From Candidatus Campbellbacteria bacterium (GTDB lineage Bacteria > Patescibacteriota > Minisyncoccia > Phycocordibacterales > EsbW-18): 64,000 bases of DNA. The position numbers and the translations under genes were made by a program. Within the stretch, counting starts at the first letter, position 1, and every line of letters starts with the position of its first letter. The notes under the pieces were generated by a model that had not been told where the DNA came from, did not search any database, and was given only the letters and a program-made list of their open reading frames with translations. Of the stretch, positions 160 to 12,686 are shown piece by piece. The stretch covers positions 184,978 through 248,977 of the forward strand of contig BTUR01000001.1 in assembly GCA_045863475.1 (NCBI GenBank). Reading direction: 5' to 3'.

Positions 160-555
160 TTAGGAAGATTTCTTTGTCGTTTTCTTTGCCGGAGACTTCT
201 TCGGGGCTGCTGCCTTCGCGTCCGCCTTTTTCACCTCAGACAAAACCAGTGTGATGTTGCTTGAGTGCTTATCGAAACGTGTTGCGCGTCCCTGCGCTCG
301 GGGCAAAATGCGGTGCAGTGTCACGCCCTTGTCGACGCGAACTTCAGCAACCTTAAGCGTCTGTGCCTCCGTCATCCCCTTCTGCTTGGCGTTTGCAAGC
401 GCGCTCTGGAGTGTTTTTTCAAACTGAACCGTCGCTCGTTTCGGCGTTGCGCGCAAAAGCTGGAGTGCCTGCGGGACGCTCTTGCCGCGGATGAGGTTCG
501 CAACGAGGCGGACTTTACGCGGAGATTGCCGGTAGTTTTTGAGGTACACGCGCAT
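160..555 (-). CDS. rplV: 50S ribosomal protein L22, with a Lys/Ala-rich C-terminal tail
   Basis: The translation MRVYLKNYRQSPRKVRLVANLIRGKSV... matches the L22 family; it sits downstream of S19 as in the S10 operon. Confidence 0.9.
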   Translation of the reverse strand: MRVYLKNYRQSPRKVRLVANLIRGKSVPQALQLLRATPKRATVQFEKTLQSALANAKQKGMTEAQTLKVAEVRVDKGVTLHRILPRAQGRATRFDKHSSNITLVLSEVKKADAKAAAPKKSPAKKTTKKSS

Positions 556-557
556 AC

Positions 558-902
558 TTATTTCTTAGCTGCATCTGACGCTGCCGCCTTGGCTGCGTGT
601 GCTGCTGCAATTTCTGCCTCTTTCTTGGCGGTGTCGAGCGCCTTTTGCATCTGACCTCCGTGCTTGCGGAACGTCTTGCTCGGAGAAAACTCGCCGAGGC
701 GGTGTCCCACCATCTCTTCAGTTACGAACACGTCGATAAACGTCTTGCCGTTATGCACCGCAAAGGTGTAGCCGACCATTTCAGGGGTGATAACTGAGGC
801 ACGAGCCCACGTGCGGATAGCCGGTCCTCCCGGCTTCTGCTTGCCCACCTTCGCCATGAGTTTGACGTTGAGATATGGTCCTTTTTTGAGCGATCGTGTC
901 AT
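558..902 (-). CDS. rpsS: 30S ribosomal protein S19, with an Ala/Lys-rich C-terminal extension
   Basis: [12 protein letters not shown]...[18 protein letters not shown] is the canonical S19 core. Confidence 0.9.
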
Positions 903-928
903 GTGACTGATTTTTAACGAGTATAGCG

Positions 929-1060
929 AGTATAAAAATCGTTACCCCGCCCTCTCTAGTTCCCTGCTATAACTGGCATAAACCTAATACCCTATCGCTC
1001 TCTACTTTGGCACGAAACAGGGATATCGTGCTTGAGAGGGCGGGGTTCTCGAAAAATACA
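929..1060. repeat. MITE-like element, copy 1, with terminal inverted repeats CCCCGCCCTCT ... AGAGGGCGGGG
   Basis: CCCCGCCCTCT lies at 945-955 and its reverse complement AGAGGGCGGGG at 1035-1045. Both ends are flanked by TAT(A/T)4TCG-like extended inverted repeats. The same architecture occurs at 3022-3150, 20470-20600 and 22030-22125. Confidence 0.6.
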
Positions 1061-1226
1061 GTCGTCAGAAACTCCTTATTTTTCGGAAAAAAATCGGCCC
1101 CTTGGCCTCGGGGCATAATACCAGAAGCGTCTTACGTGGTCAAATATATAGCTGACACAGAGGCTTCGCCTCTCAGTGCACTGAGAGGCGAAGCCTCCTG
1201 AAATCCACACATAATGCACAGGGGTA

Positions 1227-1535
1227 TTGCAAAGCATGAAGAAAGTATGTAGAATCAGCTGTGGAGTGAATGTTTTCCACCCGGACGCATCCTTCCGGCA
1301 AACACGCCGGCAGGTTCTCGCTGAGGGAGAAGTATCGATGGAAGACGCAGATGTCGGCAGAAAGGTCTGTTGCGTCAAGCGCGACGGCGACAAGGTCCAG
1401 GGCACGGTCTGCAAGTGCACGAGGAGAGGCATCGGCGTGAAGACGCCGCACCGCTTCTACCCGTCCGAGCAGTTCTCGGAGTTCTTCCGGGCCCTCGAGT
1501 ACCTCACGCCGCGACTGGCGCCGGCCGAGCTGTAA
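1227..1535 (+). CDS. hypothetical Cys-containing small protein (ORFan) inserted between rplB and rpsS
   Basis: 102-aa ORF on the opposite strand to the ribosomal genes; high GC; followed by a terminator hairpin. The frame is uncertain because alternative overlapping ORFs exist. Confidence 0.3.
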   Translation: MQSMKKVCRISCGVNVFHPDASFRQTRRQVLAEGEVSMEDADVGRKVCCVKRDGDKVQGTVCKCTRRGIGVKTPHRFYPSEQFSEFFRALEYLTPRLAPAEL

Positions 1536-1593
1536 CCAGGCAGCACCAATGGAACGGGTTTGAGCCCTCGCACGGCTCGAATCCACCAAGAAA

Positions 1594-1663
1594 GGCAGGT
1601 CCCTCGCAAGACCTGCCTTTTTTCTTTACAAAAAACCGCCCCGGCAGAGAGCCGGGGCGGTTT
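1594..1663. terminator. pair of convergent rho-independent terminators
   Basis: GGCAGGTCCCTCGCAAGACCTGCC followed by a T-tract on the + strand, and CCGCCCCGGCAGAGAGCCGGGGCGG with an A-tract (a T-tract on the - strand) immediately downstream of rplB. Confidence 0.6.
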
Positions 1664-1674
1664 AGCATTATCTG

Positions 1675-2523
1675 TTAGACCTTCCGCTTCTTGCCAACGC
1701 GACGGCGTTCGACAATGAGGAAGTTTGAATATTTCTTCGGACGGCGCGTCTTGTGTCCCTTGCCGACGTTCTTTCCGTGGCGGGTGCGAGCTCTGCGGTG
1801 ACCGCGTCCCTGGCGTCCTTCACCACCTCCGTGCGGGTGGTCAACCGGGTTCATCGCGGTGCCGCGGACCTTCGGCTTCTTTCCGAGCCAGCGCTTGCGG
1901 CCGGCCTTGCCGAGGTTCACGAGCTTGTTCTCAGGATTGGAAACTTCGCCGATGGAACCCCATGCTTTCTCAGAAACCTTTCGGATTTCCGTTGACGGCA
2001 TCTTCAGGAGCGTGTAGCCGCCGTCATGCGCGACCACTTCCGCGTAGTTGCCTGCTGAGCGGGCGATTTTTGCGCCGCCGTCGGGCTTCACTTCAATGTT
2101 GTAGACGAATGTACCGACAGGAATCTTTGCGAGCGGGAGCCGGTTGCCGGGAATGAGCGGTGCTTTTTCTGATGCGAGGAACGTGCCACCGACTTTCATG
2201 GACTGCGGTGCAAGGATGTAGCGGCGCGAGCCGTCTGCAAACACGAGCAGCGCGATGAAGCCGGTGCGGTTCGGGTCGTACTCAACTGATTCAACGCGCG
2301 CCGGAATATCTTTCTTCGTGTACGCAAAATCAATGTCTCGGAAACGGCGCTTGTGTCCGCCGCCGCGAGAGAGCGTCGTGAGGCGGCCGAATGAGTTGCG
2401 GCCCGTTGCCCGCTTAAATCCGCCGGTGAGCGGCTTGTGCGGGCGGCTGTGCGTAATGTGCTTCCGGAATTCAATGCCGGTCATGCCGCGACGTCCTTTG
2501 GTTGTAGGTTTGTATTTCTTCAT
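1675..2523 (-). CDS. rplB: 50S ribosomal protein L2
   Basis: MKKYKPTTKGRRGMTG... with GGGHKRR and HPHGGGEG motifs. The start is taken at the internal Met so that it does not overlap rplW. Confidence 0.9.
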   Translation of the reverse strand: MKKYKPTTKGRRGMTGIEFRKHITHSRPHKPLTGGFKRATGRNSFGRLTTLSRGGGHKRRFRDIDFAYTKKDIPARVESVEYDPNRTGFIALLVFADGSRRYILAPQSMKVGGTFLASEKAPLIPGNRLPLAKIPVGTFVYNIEVKPDGGAKIARSAGNYAEVVAHDGGYTLLKMPSTEIRKVSEKAWGSIGEVSNPENKLVNLGKAGRKRWLGKKPKVRGTAMNPVDHPHGGGEGRQGRGHRRARTRHGKNVGKGHKTRRPKKYSNFLIVERRRVGKKRKV

Positions 2524-2533
2524 GGCTGTAGTG

Positions 2534-2992
2534 TTACACGAGCTCGATGGTGTCTCCCTTCTTGAGCTGTACGTATGCCTTCTTGCCACCGCCGGTTTCA
2601 ATCGGCGTGCCGCGGCGCGACGTCTTCGTTTTCTTCGGAACGTTCACAACGCGAACACGAACCGGTGTGACACCGTAGACGTCTTTGACTGCCGATGCGA
2701 TGAGCTTCTTGTTTGCCGATGTCGCAACATCAAATGCGTAGACGTTGTGCGCCGAGAGCAGCGTTCCCTTCTCGGTAACGCGCGGGTTGCGCAGGATGTT
2801 CGGGTTCACGCGTCCGGCGGCAACCGTCTGCTTGAGGCTCTTCTTCTCCTCTGCGCGTGACGCACCCTTCGCAACCGGAAGCTCCTTTGCCTCTTCCTCT
2901 TTCACCTCCTGGACTTCCTTTGTCGCACGCTTCGCAAACAGCGAGGTCTTCGCTTTTGCACCGCTTGAGTTGTCTTTTTTACGAAACAGCAT
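2534..2992 (-). CDS. rplW: 50S ribosomal protein L23, with a roughly 60-aa Lys/Ala/Glu-rich N-terminal extension
   Basis: L23 core ILRNPRVTEKGTLLSAHNVYAFDV...KKAYVQLKKGDTIE; lies between L4 and L2. Confidence 0.8.
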   Translation of the reverse strand: MLFRKKDNSSGAKAKTSLFAKRATKEVQEVKEEEAKELPVAKGASRAEEKKSLKQTVAAGRVNPNILRNPRVTEKGTLLSAHNVYAFDVATSANKKLIASAVKDVYGVTPVRVRVVNVPKKTKTSRRGTPIETGGGKKAYVQLKKGDTIELV

Positions 2993-3167: not shown

Positions 3168-3947
3168 CTAAGAGTTCAATTTTGATTCAAACGCTTTCAG
3201 TGACGCATCCGGGTCGACAATCACAACGTACGTGTATGAGAGCGCGGAAAGCGCATTGAGGTTGCGCGCCTCTTCAACTCCGGTTGTCGCGATATTGCGG
3301 AAGCTTTTCTTTACTGCCTCGCTGTTTGAAGGCATCACGAACAGCGCAGCGTTGCCTGATTTGCGCGCAAGCTTCTCAAAGCCTGAAATCTTTGCGAGAT
3401 TTGTGAGCGCAGTTTTCGCCTCGGCGGTTTTCGGAGCGTTCATGGGAAGCGTATCAACAAACAGCACCTCGCCGTCTGAAAGTTTCTTTGAAAGCACTGA
3501 GAACAACGCCTTCGCGCGCATCTTCTTCGGGATGCGAACACCGTACTCCTTCGAAGCAATCGGGCCGTGCGTTACACCACCGCCGCGCCATATCGGCGAG
3601 CGAATAGAACCGTGTCGGGCGCGTCCCGTTCCCTTCTGGCGCCACGGCTTCTTACCACCACCACGAACTTCGCCGCGTCCTTTCGTGTGTGCACGGCCGC
3701 GTCCTGCGCGTGCATTGTTTTGCATGCCGGATACCACCTGGTGCACCAAGTCCGCATTCCAAGAAACACCGAAGATGCCTGCCGGGAGTGTTACCGTACC
3801 TGACTCTTTTCCTGCGACTGTGAAGATGGGGGCTGAGAGACCGTCCGCTGATTTCTTCACCGCGACCTTCTTTTCAGCCTTCGGTGCAGCCGCCTTCTTC
3901 GGCGCTGCCTTCTTCACTGTTTTCTTTTGTGCGACTTTCTTTTCCAT
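3168..3947 (-). CDS. rplD: 50S ribosomal protein L4, with a Lys/Ala-rich N-terminus
   Basis: GRGRAHTKGRGEVRGGGKKPWRQKGTGRARHGSIRSPIWRGGGVTHGP is an L4 signature. The start is taken at MEKKVAQKK, just after the rplC stop. Confidence 0.85.
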   Translation of the reverse strand: MEKKVAQKKTVKKAAPKKAAAPKAEKKVAVKKSADGLSAPIFTVAGKESGTVTLPAGIFGVSWNADLVHQVVSGMQNNARAGRGRAHTKGRGEVRGGGKKPWRQKGTGRARHGSIRSPIWRGGGVTHGPIASKEYGVRIPKKMRAKALFSVLSKKLSDGEVLFVDTLPMNAPKTAEAKTALTNLAKISGFEKLARKSGNAALFVMPSNSEAVKKSFRNIATTGVEEARNLNALSALSYTYVVIVDPDASLKAFESKLNS

Positions 3948-3954
3948 AGAAAAA

Positions 3955-4554
3955 TTATTGCGCGATGACTTCAACGACTGTGCCGCGACGTCCCGGAACC
4001 GCGCCTGAAACAACGAGGATGCCCGCTGACGGGTCAATCTGGAGCACGCGAAGGTTCTTTACGGTAATGCGCTCTCCGCCCATGCGTCCTGCCATGCGGC
4101 GGCCTTTCGGCACGCGCTGCACACCACCGGCGCCGATGGAGCCCGGCTCGCGCTCTGAGTGCTTCTGACCGTGCGTGCGGCGTCCGCCGTGGAATCCGTG
4201 CCGCTTCACCACACCCTGGAATCCTTTTGCCTTTGAAATACCCGAAACCGTAACCGTGTCACCGACCGCAAGCGAGTTGGGGTCAATAACCGTACCGACT
4301 GCAAAGTTTGCGATGTCACCGACTTGAAATTCTTTAAAATTCTGGAATGTCCCCTTCGCTTTCTGCGCGCGGTTTACTTTCGATTCCTTCTTTGTGCCAT
4401 AGCCAACCTGCACCGCGGTGTAGCCGTCGGTGTCTTGTGTTTTCACCTGTGTGACCGTCGCCGGAAACAGTGAAATGACCGTGCCCGGGTGCACGACGCC
4501 TTTTTCGTCGAAAATCTGCGTCATCTCTTGCTTTGTACCAATGAGAAATTTCAT
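3955..4554 (-). CDS. rplC: 50S ribosomal protein L3
   Basis: MKFLIGTKQEMTQIFDEKG...GFQGVVKRHGFHGG is an L3 signature. Confidence 0.9.
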   Translation of the reverse strand: MKFLIGTKQEMTQIFDEKGVVHPGTVISLFPATVTQVKTQDTDGYTAVQVGYGTKKESKVNRAQKAKGTFQNFKEFQVGDIANFAVGTVIDPNSLAVGDTVTVSGISKAKGFQGVVKRHGFHGGRRTHGQKHSEREPGSIGAGGVQRVPKGRRMAGRMGGERITVKNLRVLQIDPSAGILVVSGAVPGRRGTVVEVIAQ

Positions 4555-4749
4555 TTTTATTTTCTCCTGCGTTCCCGCAGGTTGAAAACTGATTCGCCCT
4601 GCCGGACACTGTGGTCCGGCAGGGCCGGTAGTGTCCAGTGGTCCCTATAGGGACGTGGAACGTAACGGGAGACACTATACACGAGCACTGTTTTGGATGC
4701 AAGACGCCCGCGACAAGTAGTCGCGGGCAAGAGGGGTATCAACAGGCAT

Positions 4750-4971
4750 TCAGAAGGAGTCGAGCGCCTTGAGCCACCCCTTGGGAAGCTCGTTGGGGTT
4801 GGACATCTGCGCACCGCAGTTCGGGCAGAAGCGCGGGTTCCGGTTGCCGTCTTGGTGACGAATCTGTCCCCCGCAGGAGCTGCACTTGAGGATCATTCCC
4901 TGGTACGGATGATAGTAGTCGGCGACCCACTCCGCGGTCTTGACCTGCGCCTGTTCACCAGCCATGTCCAT
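4750..4971 (-). CDS. small zinc-ribbon protein (CxxC...CxxC)
   Basis: The 73-aa product contains KCSSCGG...RFCPNCGAQM; the gene sits in an insertion island between rplC and rpsJ and has high GC. Confidence 0.45.
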   Translation of the reverse strand: MDMAGEQAQVKTAEWVADYYHPYQGMILKCSSCGGQIRHQDGNRNPRFCPNCGAQMSNPNELPKGWLKALDSF

Positions 4972-5122
4972 CTCCTTTCGGGAATCTACCCGCGACTATA
5001 CGCTGGCGGCAATACGAAGTCAAAGCGAGGCGTCCCTTAGGGACGATTGATGGCACTATTGCCACCGTGCACACATAAGAGTAAGGTGGCGAAAGAGTTG
5101 TTCCAACAAAAGGAGAACGGAC

Positions 5123-5773
5123 ATGCGGAAAGACAGGTTTCTCGATTTTCTCGGTGGAGCTGCGTTTTTCGGAGGGATATTCCTGAGTGCCTGGCACCAC
5201 GCCGCGTACCCTGGCCCTGTCACTTTCTGGTGGGGACTCATGCACGTGCCCTTGGTGGCTCTGTGGGTTTTTGGTCTTCGGAGGCTTTTCCACATCCTGA
5301 TGGGACCAAGTGTGGATGAGCTCGAGGCCGAAGACCGTCAGGCACGGGCAGGGAAATCCACCCCCGCCACGCTTGTGTCGGTCGTCGTTGTCGCGCTGCT
5401 CAGTGCCCCTGCGCTTGCGCAGGAAATCCCGAAGACGGACACTCCGCTGGTTTTCAAGTCAGTCGTGCGCGACGTCAACGTCAGAGAGTTCGTCCTCTCC
5501 CCGGAGGAGGAGGTTCGTTTCTTCAAGAGCAATGTGACACGACTGGAGCGAGAGGTCGTGGTCGCCGTCCTCCAGACGCGCATGAGCATGGAGACCGAAG
5601 AAGACGGGAGTATTGTCGCCCTGCTTCTTCGAGTTAAGACGGAAACCGCCTGTTACGGGTTCTGTTTCGAGCCCGAGGTACTGGAGCCGCCATCCTGCGT
5701 CGTTCCACTGGAGATGCCGAAGGCAACCGCCGCTGTCCCCGCAAGGGACGGCGGTTTTTTCATACAAAAGTAA
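5123..5773 (+). CDS. hypothetical membrane/secreted protein
   Basis: 216-aa ORF with N-terminal hydrophobic segments; terminator hairpin at 5726-5762. Confidence 0.35.
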   Translation: MRKDRFLDFLGGAAFFGGIFLSAWHHAAYPGPVTFWWGLMHVPLVALWVFGLRRLFHILMGPSVDELEAEDRQARAGKSTPATLVSVVVVALLSAPALAQEIPKTDTPLVFKSVVRDVNVREFVLSPEEEVRFFKSNVTRLEREVVVAVLQTRMSMETEEDGSIVALLLRVKTETACYGFCFEPEVLEPPSCVVPLEMPKATAAVPARDGGFFIQK

Positions 5774-5824
5774 AAGCCGCACCGAGAATCTCGGTACGGC
5801 TTCCACAGGAGATGGGAGCAGTGA

Positions 5825-6142
5825 TTAGCCGTACTGGACGGCCTTCTTCAGAAAATCCCGTGGGAAACCCTGCTCACAGAATCGAAGCACCTTCCCGCAA
5901 CTGCGACAAAATCGGGGTAGCCGTTGGACCGAAAACTCTGGAAACTGGTCGCCACAGCCGCCGCACTCGAACGTGCATCCCTTGATCGGGTTGAACTCAA
6001 CCGTGGTGATGTCGCACTCGTGTGCGCCATCCACGACCGTCACCCTTTCCGGTACAACCCCTTCACTCACGCATTCCTCCTGTTTCGAAAGAACAAGCTC
6101 CAAATCTATTTTCGGAGCGGAACTGGTGAAGATACCAAACAT
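5825..6142 (-). CDS. hypothetical Cys-rich (zinc-ribbon-like) protein
   Basis: The 105-aa product contains CGGCGDQF...FCRSCGK, a second zinc-ribbon-like protein in the same island. Confidence 0.4.
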   Translation of the reverse strand: MFGIFTSSAPKIDLELVLSKQEECVSEGVVPERVTVVDGAHECDITTVEFNPIKGCTFECGGCGDQFPEFSVQRLPRFCRSCGKVLRFCEQGFPRDFLKKAVQYG

Positions 6143-6227
6143 TTTTTAATGCGCAAGCGTTTGACACGGTTATACAAAAACTATAGATTGCTCCAAGATT
6201 CAAACGCTCAAGAAAGGAGTCCGCTTC

Positions 6228-6545
6228 ATGATCTTTGGCATCGTAGGCAATAAGGAGCGGGATGGCAGTTTGTTCCTGTATACCTGCTTCGTCGCGCGGA
6301 ACGAGAAGGAGTTCTTCGACCAGCATGCGCAGTACGGAACGGACGGCTTCCAAGTCCTTCGTGTCGAATCCCCGTGTACTTTCCTGGGGAGCGAGGAGGA
6401 GCTGCTCGAGCAACTCTGCAAACACATCGCCGAGAAAGGACCAATGGCCAGTCTGCTGCGTATGGCCTTGAAGGCCGGCGCGAAGGTCGGCTGGGAAGTG
6501 CGAACACAAGATATCGCACACCGCCTGCTCGGAATCGGTAGATAA
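6228..6545 (+). CDS. hypothetical protein
   Basis: 105-aa ORF followed by strong terminator hairpins at 6569-6595 and 6604-6628. Confidence 0.35.
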   Translation: MIFGIVGNKERDGSLFLYTCFVARNEKEFFDQHAQYGTDGFQVLRVESPCTFLGSEEELLEQLCKHIAEKGPMASLLRMALKAGAKVGWEVRTQDIAHRLLGIGR

Positions 6546-6568
6546 CAGGGCGGAAGCCATCTCTATAC

Positions 6569-6628
6569 CGCCGTCTTTCGGGACGGCGGTTTTTCCATAT
6601 GAAAACCCGCCCTTTCGGGTGGGTTTTG
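6569..6628. terminator. tandem/bidirectional rho-independent terminators
   Basis: CCGCCGTCTTTCGGGACGGCGG followed by TTTTT, and AACCCGCCCTTTCGGGTGGGTT followed by a T-run; these serve the + strand ORF and the downstream end of rpsJ. Confidence 0.6.
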
Positions 6629-6786
6629 TTACATCATCCGCGCACCGAAAATCTCATCTTCCGGTTTCATCTCATTTTGAGGAATGTACGGTCACCGACT
6701 CCTCAGTGATATTTTGAGTACGCTGATTTTGGTACGGGATTGATGAAAAATAAAGTCACCCGACCTTGCGGCCGGGCTCCTTATTT

Positions 6787-7149
6787 TTACATCATTTTGA
6801 CTTCAATGTTCACTCCTGACGGCAGTGACAGCGAGGTGAGCGACTCGATAACTTTCGGAGAGGGGTTCATGATGTCGAGTACTCGCTTGTGAATGCGCAT
6901 CTCGAATTGCTCTCGTGAGTTCTTGTCGATGAATGCGCCGCGGTTGACCGTGTAGGTCGAGCGCTCGGTCGGAAGCGGAATAGGACCAATGACCTCCGCG
7001 TCGTACTTCGTCGCCGTGTCGAGAATCTGCTTCATCGACTCGTCGAGCAGCTTGTGCTCGTAGGCGCGAACGCGGATGCGCAGCTTGTGCGGTGCGTCAT
7101 CGCCCGTTTTGGCTGCTTTCTTGGTTTTCGGTTTTTTCAACGTACTCAT
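6787..7149 (-). CDS. rpsJ: 30S ribosomal protein S10
   Basis: MSTLKKPKTKK...RIRVRAYEHKLLDESMKQILD...GPIPLPTERSTYTVNRGAFIDKNSREQFEMRIHKRVLDI is the S10 family. The start is taken at the internal Met rather than the extended ORF. Confidence 0.85.
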   Translation of the reverse strand: MSTLKKPKTKKAAKTGDDAPHKLRIRVRAYEHKLLDESMKQILDTATKYDAEVIGPIPLPTERSTYTVNRGAFIDKNSREQFEMRIHKRVLDIMNPSPKVIESLTSLSLPSGVNIEVKMM

Positions 7150-7255: not shown

Positions 7256-8458
7256 TTACGCAACAATCTTTGTGACGACTCCTGCACCCACTGTCTTGCC
7301 ACCCTCGCGGATAGCGAAACGCTGCTGTGCTTCAAGCGCAATCGGCGCTGTGAGCTTCACTTTGAACGTTACGGTGTCACCCGGCATGACCATCTGAACG
7401 CCCTCAGCGAGTGTTACCTCTCCGGTGACGTCAGTCGTGCGGATGTAGAACTGCGGCTTGTAGCCGGAGACGAACGGCGTGTGGCGTCCGCCTTCATCCT
7501 TCGTGAGGATGAGGACCTCGGCCTCGAATTCCGTGTGCGGCGTAACCGAACCCGGAGCTGCGATGACCTGTCCGCGCGTCACGTCTTCTTTCTTGAGACC
7601 GCGGATGAGGATGCCTGCGTTGTCACCTGCCTGTCCTTCGTTGAGCGACTTGTTGAACATCTCAATGCCGGTAACGGTCGTCTTCTGCGTCGGCGCAAGT
7701 CCGACAACTTCAACGTCCTGACCAACTTTGATGATACCGCGCTCGATGCGGCCCGTTACCACGGTGCCACGTCCTTCAATTGAGAAGATGTCTTCAACCG
7801 GCATGAGGAACGGTTTGTCCGTTTCGCGAACCGGCTCGGTGATGTAGCTGTCGAGCGTGTTGACGAGCTCAAACACCTTCTGTGCCCACTCATCATCTGC
7901 TGACTTCGCTTCAAGCGCCTTAAGGCCTGAACCGCGGACGAACGGCGTCTCTTTGCCGTCGAATCCGTACTTCGTGAGCATTTCGCGAACCTCCTCTTCG
8001 ACGAGGTCGATGAGTTCGGCGTCGGCGACCATGTCACACTTGTTAAGGAAGACGATCATTTTCGGAACACCAACTTGCTTTGCAAGAAGGATGTGTTCAC
8101 GCGTCTGCGGCATCGCGCCGTCCGGAGCTGCAACCACGAGCACTGCGCCGTCCATTTGAGCGGCACCGGTGATCATGTTCTTGATGTAGTCGGCGTGACC
8201 AGGAGCGTCGATGTGCGCGTAGTGGCGGTTCGGCGTCCAGTACTCCGAGTGGTGGAGTGAAATAGTAATACCGCGCGCCTTCTCTTCGGGCGCTTTGTCG
8301 ATGTTGTCGATTGCCTCGACGCGGGCGCCGTATCCCTTGTCCTTGTTGAGGTCCAGGACGTGGAGGATAGCTGCGGTGAGAGTCGTCTTGCCGTGGTCAA
8401 CGTGGCCGATGGTTCCGACGTTGACGTGCGGCTTTGAACGATCAAATTCTGCTGCCAT
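7256..8458 (-). CDS. tuf: elongation factor Tu
   Basis: [22 protein letters not shown] and NKCD GTPase motifs; 400 aa. Confidence 0.95.
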
Positions 8459-8778: not shown

Positions 8779-9426
8779 CTACATCATGTCCAGAAAATCG
8801 TACTGTCGGGGAAGCTCGAGGTGATCCGGCACGCGGATGCGTTCGACGGGAACACGGTCCCCCAGTGCATCCAGAATGTGCTGTCCGATGAGAAACATCT
8901 GCGGACACATCTCGCGCGGCTCGTGTCCCGGTCGCAGATAGCATGCGACAATCACATGACTTCTGCGCGCGGACTCAATCATCGCCTCGACGCGCGCAAG
9001 CGATGCTCCGACGCGCAGTGCTGCAATCAGTATCTCTTCGCGCGAAGCGTGACTGCCGAGGTGCCGGTCCTTCCATCCGAAATCAATGACACGCAATTCA
9101 TCACCGGAGAGCTCGCCGTGGAGTACGAACAACAGTACGTTCGTGTTCTCGATAAGCTCATCGCGACGCTGTGACGCGTACATCTTGTTCGCCGCCGCTC
9201 CCCTGCTGTTGCTCTCCAGGAGCATCGCGGATGGCGCCACGATACACATCGACACCATCATGATGCCGCACCAGCGCAACATCGTTGCGTCACTCATGCT
9301 AAACCCCGCAATGAGCGCTCCGAAACTGATGATGCTGAGCATCACGCCTACGAACGACACTCCTGCAAGTACCGCGAGTTTGCTTCTCTGCCACCTGCTT
9401 TTTCGAGCGAGCTCTCCGTAGGTCAT
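8779..9426 (-). CDS. MTYGE-family membrane protein, paralog 1 (2 TM plus cytoplasmic domain)
   Basis: Begins MTYGEL, has two N-terminal TM helices, and shares LFxLxHGxL...VRxIxxxW and C-terminal PLDxF-like motifs with the two neighbouring genes. Confidence 0.55.
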   Translation of the reverse strand: MTYGELARKSRWQRSKLAVLAGVSFVGVMLSIISFGALIAGFSMSDATMLRWCGIMMVSMCIVAPSAMLLESNSRGAAANKMYASQRRDELIENTNVLLFVLHGELSGDELRVIDFGWKDRHLGSHASREEILIAALRVGASLARVEAMIESARRSHVIVACYLRPGHEPREMCPQMFLIGQHILDALGDRVPVERIRVPDHLELPRQYDFLDMM

Positions 9427-9557
9427 CGCACGTCCCTCCGCATGCGCCGTACCTTCGTTCCTTCTCTGTACTCAATGGTCGCACGGGAGGGTTCAAGCGC
9501 AAGTGGAAAACCCCCGCACGCTTTTTGCGTGCGGGGGTCGTGAGGAACGAAGAGCTG

Positions 9558-10178
9558 CTACTCGGAGAGGCCGATGTTGAGGGCCGAGAGCTTCGGCGGC
9601 TCGGGAACCGGGAAGTCGTCGAGGGGGTAGGCCTGTCTTGCGGCCTCGAAAACCCTCTGGCTGATGAAGAACTTACCATCACGAGCATCGATGACGCCAG
9701 CACCGATGGTTTCGAGAAGTCGTCGGTCGAAACTGTCCCTGTCAGACGCGTAAGCCTCGAAAAGCAGTTGGTCAGTCAACGGCATGGTGACCGGTGATGA
9801 GGTTTTGGGCGTCGACGACGCGGGTCCCGTCCAGAGAAGTCTCACGGTTTCCCAGTGGGTCGGGTGCAGTCCCGAATGACTGAGCAGGAAGAATAAATCA
9901 TCGAACTGCTTCTCCCACGCTTCGCGGATGGGACGGAGCACTCGATCTTCCACATGACGTTCGTAGACGAGCGAGCCAACTCCCACCAGACATCCGATCA
10001 GCGCCCCCGCGAGAAGCATCCATGCACCAAAGCCGGCGGTGCTAGCCTTGCCGACGAAAGCGGCTTCACCGTAGAAGATGAAGAAGGATGCAAAGCACAC
10101 GGCAGCGAGAAGCATCCCGCCGTAACCAACAGGAGAACACCAGCGGTCGAAACGCTTCTGCAACTCTCCATACGTCAT
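9558..10178 (-). CDS. MTYGE-family membrane protein, paralog 2
   Basis: MTYGELQKRF..., same architecture; the LFFLLSHSGL...VRLLW motif. Confidence 0.55.
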   Translation of the reverse strand: MTYGELQKRFDRWCSPVGYGGMLLAAVCFASFFIFYGEAAFVGKASTAGFGAWMLLAGALIGCLVGVGSLVYERHVEDRVLRPIREAWEKQFDDLFFLLSHSGLHPTHWETVRLLWTGPASSTPKTSSPVTMPLTDQLLFEAYASDRDSFDRRLLETIGAGVIDARDGKFFISQRVFEAARQAYPLDDFPVPEPPKLSALNIGLSE

Positions 10179-10283
10179 GGGAAATCCTTTCTCTGCCCTC
10201 AGGCAGCGTTATGTTCTGCGGCGACGATATAAGTAAAGCGCGGACGAGTCAAGCTCGTCCGCGCGGTGCAAGGAACACAGGAT

Positions 10284-10895
10284 TCAGGATCCGCAGAGTG
10301 TGTCGAGCTTCTGCCGGGTCTCTTCGACGCTCCGGTCGTCATTGCTGTTCGCTGAAAACTTGTCGAGAGGACACGCCGCCCGAACAACATCCCAGAGGTT
10401 CTCTCCGATGGAGAGTCGGTGGTAGCTCTTCTGCGAGATCTCGAGAAAACCCCTGGCCTGAAGACGGTACAGGTAGCGGAAGAATTGCAACTCACCCTCC
10501 TGAAAGCTGCGGGCCGCCCCCTCGACTTGCTCTTTGCTCCAGAACATCGACACATGTTGCGCCGAATCGGACGTCCAGAGGTGTCTGATGACGCGAACTC
10601 CCTCGGCCTTCAGAGGGCCGTGAGCGAGAAAAAGAAACGTGTCGATATTGTTGATTCGCTGCAACCATGCGGCTCTGATGTCCTCGCGCTCGTTGTACCA
10701 CCGTGCTGTCGAGAAAAAGAGTGCGGTGGCACCTGCGATCAAGAGCGCCAGGACGAGCACGATTTCCCAGGGAACGTCGTACCCCAGCGCAAAACGTGCT
10801 CCTATGCACATGAGCACCAAAATCGTGACGAGTGCGACAACGAAAAACGAATTGCGAAACATCCGGTAATTCTTATTCGCCACTCCGTACGTCAT
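10284..10895 (-). CDS. MTYGE-family membrane protein, paralog 3
   Basis: MTYGVANKNY..., same architecture; the LFLAHGPLKAEGVRVIRHLW motif. Confidence 0.55.
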   Translation of the reverse strand: MTYGVANKNYRMFRNSFFVVALVTILVLMCIGARFALGYDVPWEIVLVLALLIAGATALFFSTARWYNEREDIRAAWLQRINNIDTFLFLAHGPLKAEGVRVIRHLWTSDSAQHVSMFWSKEQVEGAARSFQEGELQFFRYLYRLQARGFLEISQKSYHRLSIGENLWDVVRAACPLDKFSANSNDDRSVEETRQKLDTLCGS

Positions 10896-12128: not shown

Positions 12129-12686
12129 CTACAATCCGAGTTTGTTGACGATGTTGCGGTGCGGATAGTCAAACACATCGCGCACGAGTCGGTCGTTCAT
12201 ATCCATGCGGTATCTGAAGTCCTTTGTGGAAAGCGTAACGTAGCGAATTTCCGTACCGCAGTCAGACTCAATACCTGCAATCGCGCGCTTGAGCGCCCGC
12301 TCGTTGATTCGGTCCCCGACGATGAGAATGTCTGTACGCGTGTCAAAGTCACCGTTCATGAAAATACCCGATGCCGATATAAGTTTTATGGTTCCTGTAC
12401 GCGCAACGCGCTCTTCAATATCAACATCCACAAGCATGTTGCCCAATAAAAGTTCACGCAACGAAACCATGTGAGGAAACGAAGCATCGAGTGTCCAGCC
12501 CTTAGCTTTTTTCTTCGCAAATCCGGCAGATTTCAGCCACGAGAGCGGACCCGTCAGTGTGCGTGCAGGAACGTGGAGGCGTTCAGAAAGTGTTTTCGGC
12601 ATAAAGACGCCGTCCGGGTGAAATAGAAAAAAACGCATCAATCGCACGAGCGTCGCATCCCCAAACAGTTTTGCCAGCAAATCCAT
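12129..12686 (-). CDS. hypothetical protein with a possible N-terminal winged-helix
   Basis: 185-aa ORF; N-terminus LVRLMRFFLFHPDGVFMPKTLSERLHVPARTL resembles wHTH regulators; C-terminal domain unknown. Confidence 0.4.
   Translation of the reverse strand: MDLLAKLFGDATLVRLMRFFLFHPDGVFMPKTLSERLHVPARTLTGPLSWLKSAGFAKKKAKGWTLDASFPHMVSLRELLLGNMLVDVDIEERVARTGTIKLISASGIFMNGDFDTRTDILIVGDRINERALKRAIAGIESDCGTEIRYVTLSTKDFRYRMDMNDRLVRDVFDYPHRNIVNKLGL

Follow-up and report, generated by a model that had tools for sequence, protein, structure and literature searches.

The closest described counterpart of the locus considered here is the classical str-S10-spc supercluster of E. coli and B. subtilis; in E. 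coli, the S10 leader is regulated by L4. The locus lies in a stretch of 64,000 nucleotides (the window) of contig BTUR01000001.1, from a Candidatus Campbellbacteria bacterium, a tiny-celled member of the CPR (Patescibacteria), and it shares with the classical supercluster the order of those ribosomal-protein genes that are present and the position of tuf directly upstream of rpsJ. It differs in that the cluster does not appear to form one operon, having predicted terminator/promoter pairs and inserted genes at the rpsJ/rplC and rplB/rpsS junctions, in that rpsL, rpsG and fusA are absent from the whole 64-kb window, and in that a structured leader precedes rplC and not rpsJ. The two gaps are also similar to flexible genomic islets, as they have fixed conserved flanks, strain-variable cargo and recombination mosaicism, and genes that are small, orphan-rich, and secreted or phage-related. 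When compared with such islets, these gaps lie inside the otherwise most conserved bacterial gene cluster, have no integrase, tRNA or repeat boundary, and have a host-like composition. The feature is a flexible accessory-gene islet, of a known kind in an unusual place, and it is likely that pre-existing breaks between transcription units are the permissive sites that hold an old, fast-evolving gene pair (islC and islB) and the strain-specific genes islA and islD. No description of this architecture or of this metagenome-assembled genome (MAG) was found in the literature searched.

The genes of the cluster, together with the signals predicted at its breaks, are the following:

7256-8458, minus strand: tuf
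6787-7149, minus strand: rpsJ (S10), last gene of the tuf-rpsJ unit (Pfam Ribosomal_S10, expect value (E) 3.6e-31; a 120-residue gene is called on the identical contig L081)
6758-6777, minus strand: terminator-like hairpin directly after rpsJ
4674..4702, minus strand: rplC promoter TTGCAT-17-TATAGT, read from the sequence
4584..4662, minus strand: structured 5' leader of rplC, about 80 nucleotides, with the hairpin CCA-N-GUCCC...GGGAC-CAC-UGG and then a 12-bp GC hairpin
3955-4554, minus strand: rplC (L3), first gene of the rplC-rplD-rplW-rplB unit
3168-3947, minus strand: rplD
2534-2992, minus strand: rplW
1675-2484, minus strand: rplB
1638-1652, minus strand: predicted terminator after rplB
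1097-1143, minus strand: rpsS promoter TTGACC-17-TATTAT with a TG extension, directly followed by a hairpin and a T-run
558-902, minus strand: rpsS (S19), first gene of the next unit
160-555, minus strand: rplV

This minus-strand order, with spacings of 2.2 kb between rpsJ and rplC and 0.77 kb between rplB and rpsS, is the one described in the original prediction, which had also noted that tuf directly precedes rpsJ without fusA, rpsG or rpsL. The same prediction had the operon broken into separate transcription units at both junctions, and this is supported by the predicted terminators and the conserved promoters. The str-S10 cluster would be transcribed as tuf-rpsJ, as rplC-rplD-rplW-rplB, and as a unit from rpsS-rplV onwards, with rpsJ and rplB ending in putative intrinsic terminators, with a sigma-70-type promoter and a leader belonging to rplC, and with a promoter belonging to rpsS. 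The terminator scan finds 27 such sites, where 11.7 are expected. The terminator after rpsJ is also seen in L120 and L085 (read from the sequence) and in L006 (1892-1904), the rplC promoter is conserved in L085, L001, L006 and L004, with L005 keeping only the -10 region, and the rpsS promoter with its hairpin and T-run is conserved in the window, L006 (5065-5120), L001 (about 7790-7835) and L005 (about 12520-12560), the consensus of the window and L006 being TTGACC-17-TA(T/C)TAT. In the L006 locus, the rpsJ/rplC gap is free of inserted genes, and the rpsJ terminator, the rplC promoter and leader, and the rpsS promoter are all present. As these signals occur without cargo, the breaks between the transcription units are probably older than the cargo. 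The DNA between each terminator and the next promoter would be insulated from transcription, so that accessory genes would be tolerated there, and such gaps would permit gene gain, loss, duplication and recombination without disturbing the expression of the ribosomal proteins.

The clade-wide pattern is consistent with this. In total, 80 genomic loci were fetched around rplC homologs and the eight cluster genes were mapped in them; about 45 of these are related Paceibacteria loci. Loci with an rplC that is at least 50% identical form the near group and the rest are the more distant loci. The junction lengths are as follows:

rpsJ/rplC: more than 600 bp in 11 of 41 near loci, and in 3 others the available upstream flank has no rpsJ; more than 600 bp in 2 of 28 distant loci
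rplB/rpsS: more than 600 bp in 14 of 37 near loci, and in 8 others the available downstream flank has no rpsS; at most 300 bp in 27 of 27 distant loci
rplC/rplD: at most 300 bp in 43 of 45 near loci and in 8 of 9 distant loci
rpsS/rplV: at most 300 bp in 33 of 33 near loci and in 16 of 16 distant loci

Insertions into this operon had been taken to be rare, and for this lineage that premise fails at the first two junctions. The content of the rpsJ/rplC gap also varies among the relatives closest to the window:

L085 (rplC 96.5% and rpsJ 97.5% identical): islB and islC only
L120 (tuf 92% and rpsJ 83% identical): rpsJ, an islC-like gene, then an islB-like gene on the opposite strand; the contig stops before rplC
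L001 (tuf 89% identical): islB only
L006 (closest species-representative genome, rplC 81% identical): empty gap of 297 bp
L005 (tuf 89% identical): 5 kb of unrelated genes

In the relatives, the cargo of the gaps, as judged by reading the open reading frame (ORF) sequences and not by profile libraries, includes a recurrent diacylglycerol-kinase-like protein of about 130 residues, porin-like (340-400 residues) and type-IV-pilin-like proteins, a HicA/HicB pair, a pirin, an amidase, and many membrane proteins and orphans; a transposase was recognized, also by eye, in one tuf/rpsJ gap. The diacylglycerol-kinase-like protein, which is a membrane protein, is encoded co-directionally in the rplB/rpsS gap of L013, L018, L026, L027, L030 and L047. 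Secreted proteins of 340-400 residues are found in the rplB/rpsS gap of L018, L030 and L043.

In the window, the 2.2-kb gap contains four small ORFs, two of them with the CxxC...CxxC arrangement, as the original prediction had it; their strand pattern is -,+,-,+, and all four are annotated in the public MAG (AMXMBFR44; GMU74012-15), to which exact look-ups of the proteins GMU74011-15 lead. Each has a ribosome-binding site (RBS), and promoter-like and terminator-like sites are present for most:

4750-4965, minus strand: islA, a 71-residue four-cysteine zinc-ribbon protein, AGGAG RBS
5023..4995, minus strand: promoter-like site of islA, TTGACT-17-TATAGT
about 4707-4729: GC hairpin 3' of islA, with no U-tract, read from the sequence
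5123-5773, plus strand: islB, 216 residues, AAGGAG RBS
5729-5755: predicted islB terminator, overlapping the 3' end of the gene
5825-6070, minus strand: islC, an 81-residue zinc-ribbon protein with four cysteines; it starts at a GTG that is preceded by the RBS AGGAGG (annotated GMU74014)
6156..6151 (-35, TTGCGC) and 6134..6129 (-10, TATCTT), minus strand: predicted islC promoter with a 16-nucleotide spacer, conserved in the window, L085 and L120
6118..6097, minus strand: hairpin in the islC 5' untranslated region (5'UTR), then a U-rich tract, conserved in the same three genomes
5770-5806, minus strand: predicted islC terminator with a 17-bp stem
6228-6545, plus strand: islD, a 105-residue orphan ORF, AAAGGAG RBS (annotated GMU74015)
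6161-6189, plus strand: promoter-like site of islD, TTGACA-17-TAGATT
6567-6590: predicted islD terminator

A strong terminator had been claimed for each of the four; terminator-like hairpins are seen after islB, islC and islD, and after islA only the GC hairpin without a U-tract. When compared with the window, L085 has indels covering the blocks 4704-5375 (islA and the new N-terminus of islB) and 6163-6786 (islD). The rpsJ/rplC gap would have an older core of two convergent genes, islC and islB, to which strain-specific genes would have been added, namely the orphan islD and islA, the paralog of islC, which would have been gained or lost together with the new N-terminus of islB.

The two zinc-ribbon proteins have the motif CxxC-x16-CxxC with identical spacing and a common R-x-PRFC-x2-CG knuckle, and they are 32% identical over 50 residues (pairwise E 3e-9); by this sequence likeness, islA and islC are paralogs. 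The AF2 model of islA is a confident one (pLDDT 83). A 105-residue reading of islC is too long: its extra 24 codons cover the promoter and the 5'UTR, whose DNA sequence is conserved in two further genomes, and in one of these two there is no start codon at the corresponding position. The hairpin of this 5'UTR precedes UUGUUCUUU, upstream of the RBS, and could be an attenuator or a stabilising stem. L085 and L120 each have an islC homolog in the corresponding place after rpsJ, with an identity of 60% over 81 residues in L085 and of about 39-43% in L120, and all four cysteines are kept. Between the window and L085, islC has 32 non-synonymous and 20 synonymous codon changes in 81 codons, to be compared with 3 and 33 in the 121 codons of rpsJ and 7 and 60 in the 199 codons of rplC, so that at the protein level islC evolves about 10 times faster than its ribosomal-protein neighbours.

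The islB protein has a conserved domain of about 85 residues ending in CYGxC. Its relatives begin with a typical signal peptide, MKK...ALAQ(E/D); in the window, this start is replaced by a strain-specific extension of 84 residues with two apparent transmembrane helices, and the protein is predicted to be secreted or membrane-anchored. Homologs occupy the same gap, also in antisense orientation, in L085, L120 and L001; the one in L001 is 40% identical and has the domain twice, in tandem. When compared with the strain variant L084, islB of the window has 34 substitutions, about half of which are synonymous, and the 84-residue extension also evolves like coding sequence. The divergence is mosaic: islB is 6.5% diverged in L084, where the adjacent islA and spacer have one change in about 385 bp, and in L085 the C-terminal part of islB differs at 10 of 120 codons, far less than the flanking genes have diverged at synonymous positions, the flanks of this near-identical islB being 10-12% diverged. 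This suggests recombinational exchange of the secreted-protein gene. At L085 1215-1235, the T-run of the islB terminator is one T shorter than in the window, and the gene caller extends islB into the islC antisense strand (P0009); this is probably an assembly or homopolymer artefact, or else a real frameshift.

For islD, no homolog was found among 5.8 billion proteins, and the gene is absent from L085. Its single-sequence AF2 model (pLDDT 63) is too weak to be used. It is perhaps a spurious ORF, which we consider unlikely. A match of islD to AI-designed TIM barrels was disregarded, as no stretch passes, and the possibility that it is a diverged copy of islB (a tandem triplication) was rejected, as there is no protein similarity. 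The regions of the terminators after islB and islD (5745-5792 and 6580-6655, plus strand) have 22 of 25 nucleotides in common and a second, 15-nucleotide block with 14 identities, which hints at a local duplication. Word-indexed protein searches with islB and islD returned only self or near-identical sequences, and sequence searches against solved structures with islB, islD and g2a (the gene of the second gap) gave nothing meaningful.

The second gap (rplB/rpsS) had been described as holding a 102-residue ORFan with convergent terminators. The convergent terminators are borne out; the gene is likely shorter, and it is not an orphan. The most likely reading is the following:

1338-1535, plus strand (antisense to the operon): g2a, 65 residues, GAGGGAG RBS, inside the 102-residue ORF 1227-1535

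In L001, the same site has an ORF of the same orientation that is 48% identical to this reading of g2a over 64 residues (E 3e-20). An operon-strand ORF (1173-1589, minus strand) was rejected in favour of the antisense frame, being conserved only at E 9e-6 over 34 residues. There is no Pfam or PDB match for g2a. At the rpsS end of this gap, the terminator-like hairpin begins right after the -10 box of the rpsS promoter, and it may be, speculatively, that it stops read-through from upstream and spares the transcripts that start there. About 175 extra nucleotides are present in the rpsS 5'UTR of this strain alone (903-1096, minus strand), including a long-range stem of 13 bp (CCCCGCCCUCUC...GAGAGGGCGGGG) with a folding z-score of -3.95.

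The family to which islA belongs emerged from a full HMMER search in 1.8 billion cluster representatives; word-indexed searches with an islA plus islC profile returned self or near-identical matches only. It is a 13-member family of proteins of 61-79 residues: islA aligns end to end with 12 members at 35-57% identity, four cysteines and one glycine are invariant, and the conserved motifs are W-x-A-x2-YHP-x2-GM-x2-KCSxC, NPKFCPNCG and PxGW-x2-ALDxF. The islC protein fits this family only in the ribbon core and the C-terminal tail, and forms a divergent subgroup with P0010, P0018 and P0037. The genomic contexts of the members are diverse:

P0014: 102-kb phage-like contig, between Pfam matches to HMUDK_hel (5-hmdU, or 5-hydroxymethyldeoxyuridine, DNA kinase) and ADDT (amino acid:DNA transferase), near a thymidylate-synthase homolog
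P0023: phage-like contig of 47 kb, with DNA polymerase A as the next gene downstream
P0022: cellular contig with ParAB and LeuRS, between homoserine dehydrogenase and a PAP2 phosphatase
P0011: adjoining a class-V aminotransferase
P0018 (islC-type): contig L120, directly after tuf-rpsJ

In L114 (6199-6384) and L115 (8001-8186), an islA-family gene is part of a phage-like gene cluster, where it lies between the HMUDK_hel and ADDT genes and adjoins the thymidylate-synthase homolog, a neighbourhood that suggests thymidine hypermodification.

The contexts in phage-like contigs bring forward the alternative that the whole island is what remains, in decayed form, of a phage or another mobile element after its integration at the rpsJ/rplC junction. 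Many longer proteins in IMG/VR viral contigs have a C-terminal module that matches residues about 8-57 of the family profile, and islA matches phrog_22543 at E 2.3e-6, this match being confined to positions 49-99 of 105 of the PHROG profile, which is its C-terminal module. By these profile matches, the core module of the family is widespread in phages. The zinc-ribbon PHROGs of phages (phrog_22543, phrog_10714 and phrog_21525, with the module W...CSxCG...FCPNCGAxM) resemble the islA-type proteins in the N-terminal Trp-containing β-hairpin and the four-cysteine ribbon with the FCPNCGA knuckle. They differ in having an N-terminal domain of 40-100 residues that is missing from the islA-type proteins, which have in addition the C-terminal PxGW..ALDxF helix. 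There is no PHROG match for islC, and a scan of metagenome contigs with a five-sequence family alignment finds mostly generic zinc ribbons within long proteins. In scans of the island ORFs and g2a against Pfam, NCBIfam, PHROGs and PADLOC, the match of islA to phrog_22543 is the only one above threshold, the others being generic zinc-ribbon matches; among the PADLOC profiles for anti-phage defence, nothing is better than E 0.016, and all of these are short partial matches.

The atypical codon usage and the strain-variable content of the island are also as expected for such a remnant. Other properties of the island speak against it: there is no integrase or transposase domain in the four ORFs, the flanks show no direct repeats of more than 25 nucleotides, and the nearest tRNA gene is 22 kb away. 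The original prediction had called the island compositionally distinct, which is refuted, as its GC content (0.557) falls within the range of the flanking ribosomal-protein genes (0.555-0.568), and its tetranucleotide distance, exceeded by 18% of equal-sized windows, is within the normal range. The codon-usage score of the island genes, weaker than that of the core genes, is the sole compositional departure. Moreover, islB and islC occupy the same site across genomes whose rpsJ and tuf are 83-92% identical, which points to long residence and not to recent integration, and tblastn with islA finds no match in 50,697 deposited phage genomes. Integration of a mobile element as the origin of the island is, on balance, improbable.

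The original prediction itself was that the inserted genes are lineage-specific factors of the ribosome or of translation. In its most specific form, the zinc-ribbon proteins, and islC above all, would be associated with the ribosome, with translation or with S10/NusE. In the window, L085 and L120, rpsJ is indeed followed immediately by a co-directional islC-type gene; many of the small zinc-ribbon proteins belong to the ribosome; and the weak generic profile matches include eS27, bL33 and archaeal zinc-ribbon translation proteins. The zinc-binding ribosomal proteins (bL33, bL32, bL36, bL28 and eS27) are, like islA and islC, small proteins with a four-cysteine zinc ribbon. Beyond the cysteine knuckles, islA and islC have no significant sequence or fold match to them, and they are variably present and fast evolving. 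No ribosomal-protein family is found for islA or islC in Pfam and NCBIfam, and the family profile reaches bL33 in the PDB at E 0.3-1.1 only, over the cysteine knuckles. From this lack of a ribosomal-protein match, and from the phage-like and cellular contexts of the family, it is concluded that islA and islC are neither ordinary ribosomal proteins that have been relocated nor paralogs of ribosomal proteins.

Other observations also speak against such a function. A terminator is predicted after rpsJ and islC has a conserved promoter-like sequence of its own; L006, L001 and L005, where tuf is still 89-92% identical, have no islC; it is only 60% identical where rpsJ is 97.5% identical; and the islA-type relatives are found in phage-like contigs beside DNA polymerase or DNA-modification genes and beside unrelated cellular genes. 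For the inserted genes as a group, the variable content among near relatives and the signal peptide of islB in relatives point the same way. A role of the zinc-ribbon proteins in the ribosome or in translation is accordingly given a very low probability. It is most likely that islA and islC are small accessory factors that bind nucleic acids or proteins and are not components of the ribosome. A related proposal makes islC a partner of S10/NusE, or of the ribosome, that is specific to this lineage and might, for instance, couple the expression of tuf-rpsJ to that of the rplC unit, in which case the gaps would be birthplaces of such factors and not neutral landing pads. It draws on the position after rpsJ, the promoter and the 5'UTR hairpin, which are kept in at least three Campbellbacteria genomes, and it too seems highly improbable to us.

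Another reading is that the small ORFs are not real genes and that the gaps consist of spacer or regulatory DNA without coding function. The near-zero codon-usage scores (similar on the antisense frame) and the homolog-free islD with its low-confidence model would allow this. It can be set aside almost completely, as islA has a 13-member family with invariant cysteines and a confident model, the cysteines, promoter and RBS of islC are conserved in three genomes, homologs of islB are present in four genomes and its substitutions follow a coding-type pattern, and for g2a just one of the frames shows conservation at E 3e-20; of the four ORFs in the large gap, islD is the one for which no conservation in any relative is seen.

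Several points weigh against the preferred explanation, in which accessory genes occupy breaks that already existed between the transcription units. The promoters and terminators are calls made from consensus or conservation only. The co-directional position of islC directly after rpsJ in three genomes could hint at a functional link to S10. The islA gene has no clear terminator, so that its transcription could continue into the rplC leader, and the status of islD as a gene is called from its start and stop signals alone. Also, the taxon labels of many of the MAGs used for comparison are unreliable, and the name Paceibacteria is applied to them mainly by ribosomal-protein similarity.

The leader that precedes rplC is a candidate for a new ribosomal-protein regulatory RNA. 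It is found before rplC in the window, L085, L001, L004, L005 and L006, and in the window its folding z-score is -7.3. A covariance model built from six sequences detects further copies in L007, L032 and L039, which are outside the seed alignment, and all strong matches, in nine loci and the window, are on the correct strand with rplC directly downstream. Of the 20 pairs, 11 are changed on both sides and none of 500 shuffles attains the observed score, in a small sequence set with an alignment fitted to the model. The autoregulatory leaders of ribosomal-protein genes in Rfam are similar in having a conserved, covarying hairpin upstream of the first gene of the unit. Even a permissive threshold gives no Rfam match for the rplC leader, which is seen only in a subgroup of the Paceibacteria; binding of a ribosomal protein and feedback are putative.

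Three tandem paralogs of about 205-215 residues, all beginning with MTYG, lie directly upstream of tuf (8779-10895, minus strand). They have two apparent transmembrane helices and match no Pfam family, and a homolog is present upstream of tuf in L001.

The S10 cluster is the standard syntenic marker block for the binning and phylogenomics of uncultivated bacteria, and in a large group of Paceibacteria it is routinely broken at two junctions. Pipelines that assume its contiguity need to allow for such breaks and for variable cargo. The inserted genes give no sign of a new translation mechanism; the two junctions, being fixed and easily located, allow sampling of the accessory genes that these symbionts have at strain level, for example those for secreted proteins and for small phage-related proteins. 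The most useful by-product is the rplC leader, a concrete and testable candidate for a ribosomal-protein RNA in a lineage to which the classical S10 leader arrangement does not apply.

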